A stretch of 64,000 bases of DNA from Candidatus Latescibacterota bacterium (GCA_963791045.1 CAWBQK010000006.1:96001-160000), one strand, 5' to 3'; shown: positions 2,427-38,130, numbered from the stretch's first letter. Made by a program: numbers and translations. Notes: generated from the letters alone by a model not told the origin.

Positions 2427-4385
2427 ATGATGTCAAAAATCTATTTGGAAGATATTCCCCTGGATGAAGCCAGGAATCGATTACAAGAGAAAATCAAAGC
2501 TGCCGGTTTGTGGAAGCTTCTTGAGGTAGAAACCTTGGGGCTGGATGAAAATCTAGTAGGAAGGATGCTGGCAAGAACATTGTGGGCTAAGATCAACTCG
2601 CCGCATTATAACGGTTCAGCGATGGATGGTTTTGCTGTTAAATCAGAGCTAACACACGGCGCTCTGGAAACAGCTCCGGTCTCACTTCAATTTGGCAAGG
2701 ATGCTATTTATTTGGACACCGGCGACCCGCTGCCCGAATGGGCTGATGCAGTGATTCCCATAGAAAATATTGAAGCATTAAACGAAAACGGTGAAGCAGC
2801 CAAAGACTCCCGCCAGCCCAGCTCTATCCAGATCAGAGCAGCTGTCTCCCCCTGGACCCATGTCCGTGAAATGGGTGAGGATATGGTTGCAACCCAATTG
2901 GTATTGCCGCAAGGACATAAGCTAAAACCTGTAGATCTGGGGGCTGCAGCAGGAGCAGGTTATGATTCTCTGGATGTAGCCCGCAAGCCAAAAGTTGCTG
3001 TGATCCCTACAGGAACAGAGCTGGTGTATCCGGGAGATCCGCTTCAGGCAGGAGATATCATTGAATATAACTCAATCGTGCTGGCTGCACAGGTTAAAGA
3101 ATGGGGTGGAGAAGCCACCCGGATTCCGAACGTCCCAGATGATTATGACCGAATCAAATCAGAAGTAATAAAAGCAGCTCAAGAGCATGACCTGGTATTG
3201 CTTGTGGCGGGTTCTTCAGCGGGCTCAGAAGATTTCTCGGCCCGGATTGTGGACGAGTGTGGAGAGCTGCTCGTGCATGGTGTGGCAGTGAGACCCGGCC
3301 ATCCTGTCATCCTGGGGATGATAAAAGGGGAGGGGAAAGAGACGCCAATTGTTGGGGTGCCGGGTTATCCTGTTTCTGCAGCCCTGACAGCAGAGATATT
3401 TGTGGAACCATTATTGGCAAACTGGTTAGGCCGGGTACCGACAAAACCAGAAGAACTTACTGCCTCAATTACAAGAAAAGTAAACTCTCCAGCTGGAGAT
3501 GATGAATATTTGCGAGTGGCAGTTGGATACCTGGGGGATAAAGCTCTGGCAGCGCCTCTTTCCCGGGGATCTGGCGTGATCACATCCCTGGTCAGAGCTG
3601 ACGGCTTGGTGGTCATCCCACGTGGCGTGCAGGGTTTACAGGCTGGTGCTGAGGTCAAGGTTCGTTTATATCGCTCGCGTGATGAATTATATAATACGAT
3701 ATTTGTGATTGGATCCCATGATTTGACCCTGGACCTGCTGGCCCAGTTCCTATCTCCTCTCGAGCGCAGACTGGCATCGGTGAATGTTGGCAGCCTGGGC
3801 GGTATTATGGCTCTAAAACGGGGAGAAACCCACCTGGCAGGCTCTCACTTGCTGGATCCTGAGAGCGGAGAATACAATCTTACTTATATCAGGCAGCATA
3901 TTCCTGAAATTCCTTTGCGTGTAGTAACATTAGTGGGGCGCACCCAGGGATTGTTCCTGGCCAAAGGAAATCCTAAAAAAATCCAGGGATTGGAGGATTT
4001 GAACCGCCAGGACCTCAGTTTTGTGAACCGCCAGCATGGGGCTGGAACCCGTTTATTGCTTGATTACCACCTGGAGGAGCTGGGCATTTCACATGATAAT
4101 ATCAGAGGTTACTCGCATGAAGAATATACTCACCTGGGTGCAGCAGCTGTGGTGGCTTCTGGAAGGGCAGATTGTGCCCTAGGTATTGAAGCAGCTTCAT
4201 TCGCATTGGATCTTGATTTTTTGCCCCTATATTCTGAGCGATATGATCTTTTGATTCCGGAAAAGTATGCCCAAACAGAGTTGTTGAATCCTTTGCTGGA
4301 TTTATTAGAAGATCCTATATTCAGAAAAGCTGTTGCGGAACGACCAGGATATGATGTCTCGGAAATGGGTAAGATTGTTAAATAG
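2427..4385 (+). CDS. moeA: Molybdopterin molybdotransferase MoeA with C-terminal PBP (LysR-type substrate-binding) domain
   Basis: SAMDGFAV, TGTEL, GSSAGSEDF, VRPGHP, GVPGYPVSA; C-terminal GSHD...VGSLGG...NRQHGAGTR PBP domain. Confidence 0.9.
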   Translation: MMSKIYLEDIPLDEARNRLQEKIKAAGLWKLLEVETLGLDENLVGRMLARTLWAKINSPHYNGSAMDGFAVKSELTHGALETAPVSLQFGKDAIYLDTGDPLPEWADAVIPIENIEALNENGEAAKDSRQPSSIQIRAAVSPWTHVREMGEDMVATQLVLPQGHKLKPVDLGAAAGAGYDSLDVARKPKVAVIPTGTELVYPGDPLQAGDIIEYNSIVLAAQVKEWGGEATRIPNVPDDYDRIKSEVIKAAQEHDLVLLVAGSSAGSEDFSARIVDECGELLVHGVAVRPGHPVILGMIKGEGKETPIVGVPGYPVSAALTAEIFVEPLLANWLGRVPTKPEELTASITRKVNSPAGDDEYLRVAVGYLGDKALAAPLSRGSGVITSLVRADGLVVIPRGVQGLQAGAEVKVRLYRSRDELYNTIFVIGSHDLTLDLLAQFLSPLERRLASVNVGSLGGIMALKRGETHLAGSHLLDPESGEYNLTYIRQHIPEIPLRVVTLVGRTQGLFLAKGNPKKIQGLEDLNRQDLSFVNRQHGAGTRLLLDYHLEELGISHDNIRGYSHEEYTHLGAAAVVASGRADCALGIEAASFALDLDFLPLYSERYDLLIPEKYAQTELLNPLLDLLEDPIFRKAVAERPGYDVSEMGKIVK

Positions 4386-4518
4386 TTGCTTGATCATCCT
4401 CCGGATGATATTCAATAACAGAGAGGTGGGTAATTCAATCTTTTTCTTCACAAATATTCAATCTCGTCTATAATGGTGTTGAAAAATTTCAAGTTCTTTA
4501 AATGTTGGAGGAAGGACG

Positions 4519-5726
4519 ATGGCTGTATTAAAAGAAATAAAGGTGTGATAGGTATCCTGACTGGTGGCGGAGACGTACCTGGACTCAATCCGGCAATCCG
4601 GGCTGTGACCATCCGGGCATTAAGGGAAGGCTATCAAGTGATTGGTTTGCGGCGGGGCTGGGCTGGAATAATGGAACTCATCCGTGACAAGAAAGCTGAT
4701 AACCAGTTTAATTTTGAAATCCTGACCGAAGAGCGTGTCAATAAAATGGGTCGCACAGGTGGAACTTTTTTGCACACATCCCGAACACGTCCCAGTAATG
4801 TATCCAAGGATTCAGTTCCAATACACCTGAGAGATGTATACACAGAAGAGGTGAACGATCTCACTCCAGAAGTTGTTAAAAACCTTGAATGGCTGGGAGT
4901 TGATTATTTGATCCCGATTGGTGGCGATGACACCCTCAGCTATGCAGTAGAGTTATACCGAAAGGGTGTGAATGTTGTGGGGATACCTAAAACAATGGAT
5001 AATGATGTGCCAGGAACAGATTACTGCATTGGATTCAGCACCGCAGTAACGCGGACGATCGAGATCGTAAATAACTTGCGCACGACTGCCGGCTCCCATG
5101 AACGTTTTCTGGTATTGGAGGTTTTTGGTCGCTATGCGGGATTTACCGCCATGCTTCCAACAATGGCCGGTGCTGCGAATCGTTGTGTGATCCCGGAATA
5201 TAGATTTGATATTGAACAATTAACAGAGTTATTGGCAGAAGACCGTTTCAAGAATCCCAGTCGCTACTCGATTGTCCTGGTGTCAGAAGGCGCTCTGTTC
5301 ACCGGTGAAGAGATGATCTTTGAAGATTCCATTGTTGACGCCTATGGTCATAAAAAATTGGGCGGTATAGGGGATTTGGTATCCGAAGAATTGAAAAATC
5401 GCTCGGCAAAATATAATGACGGGAAAAAGATCAATGTTGTTAACCAAAAGTTAGCTTACCTGGTTCGAGGTGGAAGCCCCGATGCCATTGATTCGATCGT
5501 TCCTATGGCGTATGGCAATCTGGCCTTGGATCTGATCCTGCAGGGCGTGCACGGGCGGTTGGTTGTGCTTAAGAATGGTCGATATGACAATATGCCAATT
5601 GAAGTCCTCTCCGGAAATAGCAAAGTAGTTGATGTAGAACGTTTCTACAACACTGAACGCCTGCGGCCGCATTATAAAAAGTTTGCTATGAAGCCTTTGT
5701 TCATTATGATGGCCGAGGATGGCTAG
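4519..5726 (+). CDS. pfkA: 6-phosphofructokinase, PfkA family, probably PPi-dependent; likely true start ATG 4519 with a 1-nt deletion in the following A-run
   Basis: GILTGGGDVPGLN, GGTFLHTSR, IGGDDT, PKTMDND, EVFGR; GGAGGAAGG RBS before 4519. Confidence 0.9.
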
Positions 5727-34898: not shown

Positions 34899-35143
34899 AA
34901 TCTTCTCCAATAGGATGTCTTTGAAACCAGGCCGCAATTCTTAAAAAAATGCGGATATCTGGCACGATTCTGTATTTGTGCATATTAGTTATAACACTTC
35001 AACGAAAATTGGTGCAAAACCAATTTATTTTTTTTCAGCTTGAGAAATAAATTAAATGAGATCAATTTAGGCGGCAGCTCACAGGTGATACGCAGATCAC
35101 CTGTGCAAGTCAAGATCAAGTTCGAATGTTTATTCATTGCATA

Positions 35144-35797
35144 TCAGGAACCCTCTGATATTTTCAAATAACTTTTGATGGCCTTATCAAGTTTTGCTGG
35201 TTTAAAATCGTAAGGACCCAGACCCCCGCCATAAACGATCCTCCCATCCAAGCTGACCAGGTATAACCGCGTTGGCCAGGCGGCATAGCTATCATTCACA
35301 AAGTCATCCATCTCGTCAACATAGGTATGGACACCGTATTTTAGTGCGGTCTCACACTCTCCCGCCACTGATCGCCTTTCCTCCAGAGTTTTAGGGTCAT
35401 AATGCTCCATCGAAACCTTGGGAGCCATTTTGAGCATGATGTTTTTTGTAAGACGCCGCCCCAGCCACCAGCCATCAACTGGATGTGCCTCGCGAATGTA
35501 AATGCTCAGGAACTGGACCTGCTCATGATATTTTTCATAGAGCTGCTGGATACTCACGGTACCCTTGACATATGGAGGTCAGGTAAAGCTGCCAAAAACC
35601 AGGGCAACTGGTTTCTTTCCCTGGAAGTCCGAAAGGGTGACCGATTTTGTGCCAGAGACATCTTTGAGTGTGAAATCTGGCGCCAGGTCTCCAGCCTTAG
35701 GCGCTTTTTTGTTTAACGCCATTTGTTTTTTCATAACTTTGCTGCGAAAGCTAAATATAAATCTAAGGTCCTCATAAAGTTCAGCCAGAATTGCCAT
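35144..35797 (-). CDS. Iodothyronine-deiodinase-like thioredoxin-fold selenoprotein (217 aa; Sec at codon 73, UGA 35579-35581)
   Basis: ORFs 35579..35878 and 35144..35557 are in one frame, separated only by TGA in FGSFT*PPY; GDLAPDFTL, IYIREAHP.DGW, YAAWPTRLY, GGLGP motifs. Confidence 0.85.
35548..35564 (-). promoter_or_regulatory. Candidate bacterial SECIS hairpin
   Basis: GGGUAC-CGUGA-GUAUCC stem-loop starting 14 nt 3' of the UGA, with G in the apical loop. Confidence 0.55.
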
Positions 35798-36141
35798 TTT
35801 TGACTCCAATTGCAGATATATTTTATTATTGGTTTTGAAGTTTAGTTCTTTGGCCCTATGATGAATTGTATCTTGCAATCTGGGAGATTACCCCGCAATC
35901 TATATTGATTGATAAAATTTCTCGAATTTCGGTCCAATTCATAAGAATAGAATAGGAAATCCATACTTCTTGTTCCTTTTGATGAGTACCGTATAGAATC
36001 GATAGACTTCATTTTACCCCCTGAATTGAATAGACAATTTTTTCCTGTTCAACCGAGGTCAGGGGATTACCCAGTTTTCATAATTTTCATTACGCTAGAC
36101 TCTGGACAGGTCAGCCGTAGGACTCCAATCTATTTCAGTCC

Positions 36142-36352: not shown

Positions 36353-38130
36353 ATGAGAATGTCCAAATTGCTCAGTCAAACACTCAGGGAAGCCCCGTCA
36401 GATGCGGAGATCATCAGCCATCAGCTGCTTGTTCGTGCTGGCTATATCCGCCAGATGGCAGCCGGGATCTTCACTGCCATGCCTCTTGCAAAACGTTCCC
36501 TGACCAAGATCGAGAATATCATGCGGGATGAAATGAACAAGATCGGTGGGCAGGAAATGTCCATGCCGGTAGTCCATCCGGCGGAGATCTGGCAGGCAAC
36601 TGGACGCTGGGAAAAAGTCGGTCCTGAAATGGGGCGCTTCCACGATCGCAACGGGCGCGATATGGTGTTGGCAATGACCCACGAAGAAGCGGTGGTATCT
36701 GTGTTAAGGATGAGGTCCAGTCCTACCGCCAGCTGCCTATGCTGATCTATCACATTCAGACCAAATGGCGTGACGACCCGCGTCCCCGGGCAGGATTGAT
36801 CCGGGTCAGGGAGTTCATGATGAAGGACAGCTACAGTCTGGATCGAGATTGGGCTGGATTGGACTTACAGTATGCCAATCATTACCAGGCTTACTTCAAT
36901 ATCTTTGGACGCTGCAAGCTTCCGGTTATCGCTGTGGAATCCGATGTGGGTATGATGGGTGGCAACCTGGCCCATGAGTATATGTACATTACCCCCATAG
37001 GAGAAGATACCCTGCTGTTATGCGATAAATGCGGCTATTCCGCTAATCGTCAGATCGCAGAATTTAGGAAGGTCAAGTATGAAGAAGAGAAAGTTCTGAA
37101 ACGCGAGAAGATCGCCACACCTGAGACGAAGACAATTGCAGACCTGGCAGAACTGCTGGAAATCCCCAAGAGTAAAACAGCCAAGGCAGTTTTCTTGATG
37201 GCAGCCAAATCAACCGAGGACGGTGAGATGGAAACACTGGTTTTTGCTATCGTGCGTGGTGATATGGAACTTAATGAGACCAAGCTGGTAAACGCTGTGG
37301 GTGCAAGGAGCCTCAGGCCTGCCGAGGAAGAAGAGATCAAAGCTTCCGGTGCTGTACCTGGATATGCATCCCCTGTAGGATTAAAGGATATCCTGGTAGT
37401 TGTGGATGACTTGATCCCAGACTCTCCAAACCTGGTTGCCGGTGCAAATGAAAATGGGTTCCACTTCAAGAATGTGAACTACGGCCGAGATTTTACTGCT
37501 GATATTGTGACAGATATTGCAGCCGCCCAAGATGGAGATGGCTGTCCAAATTGCGGCGCAGACATGAATGCTGTCCGCGGTGTGGAAGTTGGCAATATCT
37601 TCAAACTGGGGACCTGGTACAGTGAGGCGGTCGGAGCAAACTATCAGGATGCTGACGGAGACGAAAAGCCGGTCGTGATGGGAAGCTATGGTATTGGCAG
37701 CGGCCGATTGCTGGCTTCTGTTGCAGAGGAATATAACGACAAATATGGCTTGATCATGCCAATCACTATCTCTCCTTATGAGGTGCACCTGGTTGAATTA
37801 GTTGGTAAGAAAGATGAAAGTGGAGAAGTAAAGAGAGTAGCTGAACAGCTTTACAAGGATCTGACAGCAGCCGGTGTCGAAGTCCTGTTTGATGATAGGG
37901 ACGAAAGTCCCGGTGTGAAATTTAACGATGCGGATCTGATTGGTGTTCCACTCCGATTAACAGTGGGCTCACGAGCGCTGCAAGAAGGCGGTATTGAAGC
38001 CAAACTCCGCACTGAGAGTGAAAAGAGCTCTATTCCGCTTGATCAGGCCGTTGAAAAGGTGAAAGAGATTATTCAGGGTTTGTATCAAGATATTCTGGAT
38101 GATCTGGAAACAGTGGAGTTCGAGAGGTAA
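36353..38130 (+). CDS. proS: Proline--tRNA ligase, bacterial type with INS editing domain; frameshift near 36700
   Basis: SHQLLVRAGYI, MTHEE, KWRDDPRPRAGLIRVREF.MKDSYS, GVEVGNIFKLG, MGSYGIG, GVKFNDADLIG. Confidence 0.95.

Follow-up and report, generated by a model that had tools for sequence, protein, structure and literature searches.

An in-frame UGA that almost certainly encodes the active-site selenocysteine of a bacterial protein of the iodothyronine-deiodinase family

Introduction

The window analysed here, a 64,000-nucleotide stretch deposited under Candidatus Latescibacterota bacterium (GCA_963791045.1, CAWBQK010000006.1:96001-160000), contains two table-11 open reading frames, 35579..35878 (N-terminal, ending in VFGSFT) and 35144..35557 (C-terminal), that share a common frame on the minus strand. 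Are these the halves of one selenoprotein gene, and what might such a protein do? An earlier interpretation (the sequence-only reading) had claimed that the frame is split solely by the TGA in GTT TTT GGC AGC TTT ACC TGA CCT CCA TAT, and we found this string directly, with both halves in one frame.

Proteins of this kind have been described before. A 2005 report on Sargasso Sea surface water presented bacterial deiodinase-like proteins, four sequences with Sec and six with Cys, and proposed a redox function (Zhang, Fomenko & Gladyshev 2005, PMC1088965), and reviews from 2022 and 2026 list the family with the motif UxxC (PMC9312934, PMC13188914), as far as the excerpts of these sources go. The 2005 account bears out the statement, in the sequence-only reading, that such proteins had been reported computationally and had no established function. 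As a selenoprotein the gene is thus ordinary, the family having been catalogued since 2005. The excerpted description of the catalogued 'deiodinase-like protein' (PMC1088965) fits it in that the gene is bacterial, belongs to PF00837, has an in-frame UGA at the active site and has a SECIS-like element just downstream. In contrast to the UxxC family, however, the window's protein reads U-P-P-Y and its relatives read U-P-P-Y/F (or U-S-P-Y, U-P-T-H), and a Cys at +3 from the Sec was found neither in the window's protein nor in any of the 80 loci examined (the best 80 of 415 relatives). The provenance differs as well: the 2005 set, according to the same excerpts, came from surface ocean water, whereas the present subfamily comes from Anaerolineales/Chloroflexota MAGs.

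Results and Discussion

One reading frame with a conserved internal TGA

Translated with TGA as U, 35797..35144 (minus strand) gives 218 positions in one unbroken frame (M1...FGSFT-U73-PPYVKGTVS...SEGS, then the terminal TGA). The complete gene, 35144..35797, starts at ATG 35797..35795, has 217 sense codons (35797..35147) and ends with TGA 35146..35144. Its codon 73, the candidate Sec-UGA (35579..35581, minus strand), was located in the motif G-S-F-T-U-P-P-Y from the translation, the TGA of homologs and alignment to Dio. The start is supported by homologs L021-L038, which match residues 1-211/212 from the same start, and a GGAG read from the sequence 6 nt 5´ of the ATG (35804..35807, minus strand) may serve as a Shine-Dalgarno element. 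Of the deiodinase signatures cited in the sequence-only reading, FGSFT-U-PPY and E-A-H-P-x-D-G-W are present, but ERLY is not, the protein reading PTRLY at that point. A promoter scan of the minus strand found no sigma-70-like site upstream of the gene, and a terminator scan found no intrinsic terminator after it. About 40 nt past the stop there is a perfect 10-bp inverted repeat (35080..35105; arms 35080..35089 and 35096..35105, 6-nt spacer, no T-run), which might form a hairpin at the end of the transcript or bind a protein.

A homolog scan restricted to one genome per species gave 415 relatives, of which the best 80 loci were examined; these encode proteins 53-80% identical to the window's copy. 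The sequence-only reading had suggested checking homologs for Cys or Sec at this site: the aligned codon is TGA in 80 of these best 80 loci (77 recognized by the motif pattern, three by inspection), and no Cys form was found among them. Among 208 genomes sampled from the same phylum, only four other matches span the deiodinase part, each with one TGA, and the remaining matches are short generic-redoxin ones. U73 aligns with the active-site Sec (crystallized as Cys) of mouse Dio3 and Dio2.

Public gene calls present a different picture of these genes. Among the best 120 clusters of a large protein database, 105 are C-terminal pieces of 132-147 aa that start just past the TGA, and the other 15 are full-length with W at the Sec column, all of them on contigs of <=1837 bases. 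For the window, the public calls list only the C-terminal piece, as a 137-aa 'hypothetical protein' at 35144..35557 (minus strand) with a GTG start internal to the true gene; entry P0003 (137 aa) is 99% identical to this piece, and there are ~100 similar truncated entries. Stubs and W entries are both expected if gene callers stop at TGA or read it as Trp, and we read the W in the 15 full-length entries as a TGA that was probably translated under another code.

A hairpin held in register after the UGA

The sequence-only reading had placed a hairpin just 3´ of the UGA, and GGGUAC-CGUGA-GUAUCC indeed begins 14 nt after it (35548..35564, minus strand), with a 6-bp stem formed by 35564..35559 and 35553..35548, a 5-nt CGUGA loop (35558..35554) and a UGA-to-loop spacing of 20 nt. 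The register is kept across 81 sequences in a gapless alignment of the 63 nt from the UGA on (homologs from the best 80 of 415). In this alignment, 90.7% of cells in the 6-bp helix (columns 18-23 with 29-34) pair, versus 28-58% after shifting the 3´ partner by 1-3 columns. Neither the observed pairing nor the covariation score was reached in any of 500 column shuffles, although much of this result and of the conservation could arise without RNA structure, as the hairpin also encodes a conserved G-T-V-S-L/I peptide and comes from related sequences. RNAalifold independently gave the inner five pairs of the helix. At pair 21:31, 69 sequences have G-C, nine have U-A and one has A-U, and in two the pair is broken. 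Column 21 falls on the third, synonymous position of a Gly codon and column 31 on the first position of an Ile/Leu/Phe codon, so that this coupling is not predicted by protein constraint alone. In the quick tree described below, the nine U-A rows are spread over several of the clade's branches, but with many forks open they do not give a count of independent changes.

Folded as a single sequence, the 71-nt context of the window's hairpin (-17.7 kcal/mol, z -1.97, hairpin part of the MFE structure) is only modestly better than its shuffles, 8 of 200 of which matched it. The bSECIS model, as given in the excerpts of PMC13188914, has an apical loop of 3-9 nt, an upper stem of 4-16 bp, a G within the first two nucleotides of the loop, with G or U usually next, a UGA-to-loop distance of 16-37 nt and an MFE of -7.5 kcal/mol or lower. 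The window's hairpin lies within these bounds for loop length (5 nt), stem (6 bp), loop sequence (G at position 2, then U) and spacing (20 nt), and the loops read N-G-[G/U] in 81 of the 81 aligned sequences. With respect to the energy limit, the outcome depends on the stretch folded, as the hairpin alone gives -6.5 and nt 4-45 give -6.9 kcal/mol, both short of the limit, compared to the far lower value for the 71-nt context. The limit is reached by 22 of the 81 hairpins folded alone and by 61 of 81 for nt 4-45, and the helix is included in the MFE structure of nt 4-45 in 44 of 81 sequences. A lower-stem extension, present in the window's local fold, was left out of the element; its columns 12-14 and 36-38 look variable by eye. 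An Rfam scan of 35100..35900 in E-value mode gave no SECIS family match, and its four matches were eukaryotic (miRNA, snoRNA, prion pseudoknot), at chance level and far below gathering scores.

Selenocysteine machinery and the reading of the UGA

The source genome (3.66 Mb in 21 contigs, with a completeness of 81%) has profile matches for selB (373.7 bits), selA (460.5 bits) and selD (373 bits), as well as a tRNA-Sec (66.1 bits) that ARAGORN calls tRNA-SeC with anticodon tca. Thus selA, selB, selC and selD, which the sequence-only reading had named as the genes to look for, are all present, each above its curated cut-off. To judge from its sequence, selD (G000:C6:361456-362382, locus L010) also encodes a selenoprotein: it has a single in-frame TGA, at locus position 1531, within the motif SCAG-U-AAK. 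The hairpin after this UGA has a 6-bp stem, the loop CGGGU and a spacing of 19 nt, so that two UGA-containing genes of one organism have a common hairpin geometry. Elsewhere in the genome, a GTPase-like frame (G000:C18:159590-160189, L006), which matches the selB family weakly at 66 bits, contains one in-frame TGA and lies ~700 nt from the tRNA-Sec gene (C18:158792-158887).

TGA otherwise serves as a normal stop codon and has not been reassigned: it ends 14 of the 35 window frames of >=250 codons, the deiodinase-like gene itself and 36 of the 80 homolog genes (best 80 of 415). Given this normal use together with the TGA in all 80 of these homologs, the conserved hairpin and the sel machinery, we conclude that the TGA at 35581..35579 almost certainly encodes the active-site selenocysteine. 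This UGA would be read by Sec-tRNA(Sec) delivered by SelB, which presumably binds the 6-bp hairpin with the C-G-U-G-A loop 14 nt downstream, and the UGA that closes the gene would terminate translation normally. Overall, an intact PF00837 gene with Sec73, recoded by way of SelB and the hairpin, is very probably the best explanation of the locus; the chemistry of the protein is graded separately below.

A thioredoxin-fold protein of the deiodinase family

The Pfam profile T4_deiodinase (PF00837), suggested earlier as a check, matches residues 20-205 with 101 bits against a cut-off of 27 (E 8.5e-29). This is the sole PF00837 match in the source genome, and none of 14 control genomes has one. The best sequence matches among solved structures are mouse Dio3 (4tr3, E 1.5e-19) and Dio2 (9h48, 8.7e-14). 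An AlphaFold2 model built on the 80-sequence alignment (mean pLDDT 83.2, pTM 0.83, with 60-70 over an insertion at residues 101-130) gives the same two proteins as Foldseek ranks 1 and 2 (4tr3, E 8.5e-13, TM 0.77; 9h48, 3.0e-12, TM 0.78), followed by SMc02350, ResA, AhpE and Bcp-type thioredoxin-fold proteins. With Dio3 and Dio2 as the top matches in both sequence and fold, the deiodinase-like, Sec-dependent thioredoxin-fold identity proposed in the sequence-only reading holds, and it is strongly supported that the protein is a cytoplasmic thioredoxin-fold enzyme of the iodothyronine-deiodinase family with Sec at position 73. The best NCBIfam match, NF038285 'deiodinase_rel' (181.4 bits, below the 250-bit cut-off), covers profile positions 169-340 of 347; unlike that family, the window's protein does not have the N-terminal half.

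Conservation was read from an alignment of 80 protein sequences, with homologs from the best 80 of 415 and with L065 excluded because of a second TGA. That in-frame TGA (L065:3273-3275) replaces the invariant Trp of D-G-W-W and may reflect either mutation of W to a stop or an error in sequencing. S70, T72, Y100, E103, H105 and W110 are invariant across the 80 sequences. The excerpts of PMC11592359 describe a proton relay and loop-D residues of Dio as Ser, Thr, Tyr, Glu, His and a second His. Numbering these by the Dio3/Dio2 sequence alignment, the ungapped Sec-to-His stretch and the residue numbers in the same excerpts, we found that the six invariant residues of the window's protein, Trp110 among them, match Dio relay and loop-D positions and that five of the six named Dio residues are kept; the sixth, at the Dio3 His219 position (H132 here), is variable.

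Like vertebrate Dio1-3 (4TR3, 9H48), the protein thus has the G-S-x-T-U-P-P active site, the Y-I-x-E-A-H-P-x-D-G-W loop-D edge and the Ser, Thr, Tyr, Glu and His of the relay, and the distance from Sec to His is 32 residues without a gap in both. It differs from the vertebrate enzymes in that no membrane anchor is evident, the N-terminus being a charged helix (residues 2-31), and in that the SECIS element lies in the coding region rather than in the 3´ UTR. The other differences lie at functional positions of Dio: in addition to the variable His219 position, the carboxylate clamp (Dio3 Arg275, Dio2 Lys241) is replaced by Leu193 (GGLGP vs GGRGP/GGKGP), and the proximal and distal Dio cysteines are replaced by Phe71 and Val156, while a family-specific Cys148 is conserved in >=90% of sequences. 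The absence of the clamp argues against thyroid-hormone-like substrates but not against membership of the family.

RDH-like genes beside the deiodinase-like gene in close relatives

In the window, genes for SRPBCC and transglycosylase-associated proteins lie downstream of the deiodinase-like gene, and a divergent proS lies upstream. These and other window neighbours (SRPBCC, transglycosylase-associated, rhomboid, proS, SCP2, thiolase, alanine racemase and others) were sought around the relatives, and none of the 80 loci (best 80 of 415) shares any of them, so the window gives no local operon clue. No reductive-dehalogenase-like (RDH-like), TetR or AhpD-like gene was found beside the window's own gene.

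The relatives themselves are more informative. In a quick maximum-likelihood IQ-TREE analysis of 80 rows (without L065, with SH-aLRT support only and a midpoint root), the window and L021-L038 form a 19-row clade with an SH-aLRT of 97, and the other clade has 61 rows. By tblastn, RDH-like genes lie near the deiodinase-like gene in 11 loci among the best 80 of 415. Ten of these are among the 18 clade relatives (L024, L025, L026, L028, L030, L031, L032, L035, L037 and L038), in which small RDH-like genes flank the gene directly and on the same strand, one or two per locus and on both sides in L028, L031, L032, L035 and L038. Intact copies of these small genes encode 324-368 aa, and some are split into shorter pieces; on TIGR02486 they score 55-84 bits, below the 160-bit cut-off and above their own QueG scores. 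The RDH-like neighbour in L038 is nearest to PceA-type dehalogenases (8q4h, 7.4e-23; 4uqu, 6.3e-14), before NpRdhA and QueG. In five carrier genomes, 9 of the 16 RDH-family matches (E <=1e-10) fall within the 6.6-kb deiodinase-like locus by contig coordinates. In the 61-row clade, an RDH gene occurs close by in L060 only; it belongs to the large type (164.6 bits) and is separated from the deiodinase-like gene by one gene. The sole RDH-like gene of the window's genome lies on another contig; it too belongs to the large type (149.2 bits) and shares 56% identity with that of L060.

A TetR-type gene is present in eight loci and an AhpD-like gene in two, L024 and L030, where it lies downstream (best 80 of 415). 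Read from these sequences, the order in the relatives appears to be a small RdhA-like gene, the Sec-deiodinase-like gene and a second small RdhA-like gene, often with TetR, which is a new lead. Full-text searches, with subscription journals and supplements outside their scope, found no report of RDH-like genes beside bacterial deiodinase-like genes. As carriers occur on both sides of the deepest fork of the 19-row clade, as placed by the midpoint root only, the cassette is probably ancestral to this clade, and the lineage leading to the window, L021 and L022 probably lost it or left it behind.

Several RDH-like copies are broken by frameshifts or TAA (L028:2031-3001, L031:3662-4705, L035:1919-2952 and 3689-4694), which could point to faulty assembly or to copies in decay. 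Two relatives (L028:1021-1998, L034:310-2967) have a PEP-synthase / rifamycin-phosphotransferase-like gene upstream. In the other clade, genes that recur upstream are a diacylglycerol-kinase-like gene (12 of 80 loci) and a cyclophilin gene (11 of 80; best 80 of 415).

Dehalogenation or peroxide reduction

The reading that we tentatively prefer, at somewhat less than even confidence, is Sec-dependent dehalogenation of a halogenated aromatic compound that is not an amino acid. The preference comes from the Dio-specific network that is kept and from the RdhA-like and TetR neighbours, and the missing carboxylate clamp points away from an amino acid of the thyronine type as substrate. In this mechanism, a halogenated aromatic, probably phenolic, would give up its halogen to the selenolate, formally as X+, the conserved Ser-Thr-Tyr-Glu-His network would protonate the ring, and the oxidized selenium would be re-reduced by a thiol, possibly that of Cys148. 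In the relatives the enzyme would act in a TetR-linked cassette beside small B12/Fe-S RDH-like enzymes, and in the window's genome it would act alone. Several observations speak against dehalogenation: the window's gene stands alone, His219 is not conserved, and the clamp and both Dio cysteines are absent. Moreover, gene adjacency does not tell the chemistry of the deiodinase-like protein.

The strongest alternative is that the protein is a true selenoprotein but a peroxiredoxin-like peroxidase or thiol-disulfide oxidoreductase with no dehalogenase activity. Sec73 would then be oxidized by a hydroperoxide or disulfide and recycled by Cys148 or by an AhpD-like or thioredoxin partner. The protein does share the core fold and the position of the reactive residue with peroxiredoxin and ResA-type proteins, the latter and AhpE and Bcp-type proteins following Dio3/Dio2 among its fold neighbours, and Redoxin (40.4 bits) and AhpC-TSA (31.5 bits) pass their cut-offs, although over residues 34-111 only. 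Deiodinases have been described with a peroxiredoxin motif (excerpts of PMC11592359), and a redox role was suggested in 2005 (excerpts of PMC1088965). The AhpD-like, 'peroxidase-related' gene downstream in L024 and L030 (2 of the best 80 of 415 loci) would fit a peroxidase system equally well. However, the protein has the deiodinase-specific insertion, Sec in place of Cys and no CxxC, and its matches to deiodinases are far stronger than those to peroxiredoxins or thioredoxins. The E-A-H-P-x-D-G-W motif and the relay residues, invariant in the 80 sequences, would be superfluous for a generic peroxidase, and within the clade RDH-like neighbours occur in 10 of 18 relatives versus 2 of 18 for AhpD-like ones. 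On balance we consider this alternative only slightly less probable than dehalogenation, and likewise below even odds.

A broader version of the preferred dehalogenase reading, which we put forward as doubtful, is that the clade consists of cofactor-free, Sec-dependent reductive dehalogenases that share one TetR-controlled pathway with small B12/Fe-S RdhA-like enzymes and act on natural halogenated phenolics. If this were true, deiodinase chemistry would be an ancient bacterial activity for detoxifying or scavenging organohalides that animals later used on thyroid hormone.

Readings in which the TGA does not encode selenocysteine fare much worse. The TGA could be a nonsense mutation or an assembly error, leaving a pseudogene or two small genes: the frame is broken under table 11, the C-terminal piece stands by itself in public gene calls, and at least one probable frameshift affects the assembly close by, in proS. 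This is very improbable, as the same codon is TGA in every one of the best 80 of 415 loci, from different species, both halves are conserved in one frame, the TGA falls exactly at the deiodinase Sec position and the genome has the full Sec machinery. Least credible of all is a genome-wide reassignment of TGA to tryptophan or another standard residue (e.g. table 4 or 25), in which the W in all 15 full-length database homologs (among the best 120) would be correct, since the normal stops at TGA counted above, the presence of selA, selB, selD and a tRNA-Sec with anticodon tca, and the short contigs of the W entries, on which a gene caller may choose another code, all speak against it.

Two points are of practical use. 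This subfamily is consistently miscalled in public gene annotation, with 105 of the 120 best entries being C-terminal stubs and 15 having W at the Sec site, so that inventories of the Chloroflexota selenoproteome and of redox enzymes undercount it. In addition, the RdhA-like cassette in the window's own clade offers a concrete, testable lead on the function of bacterial deiodinase-like proteins, one that points to halogenated aromatics.

Host assignment and taxon labels

The prolyl-tRNA synthetase encoded next to the gene shares 90-91% identity with its counterparts in Anaerolineales MAGs, including the MAG with the best homolog of the selenoprotein. This agrees with the Anaerolineae-like host proposed in the sequence-only reading, and we take the organism, by its sequence, to be an Anaerolineales bacterium. 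The proS gene (36353..38130, plus strand) is itself in two overlapping open reading frames of different frames, 36353..36745 and 36739..38130, with the class II core in the C-terminal one matched only from profile position 39; a frameshift or assembly indel near 36740 is probably responsible. Several homologs (L029, L036, L079, L085, L092, L095, L099 and others) come from MAGs labelled Desulforhopalus, Actinomycetes, Methanosarcinales archaeon, Rickettsiales, Enterobacterales or Coriobacteriia. For these odd labels mis-binned contigs seem more likely than transfer; L079, labelled 'archaeon', is near-identical to L093 from Anaerolineales.
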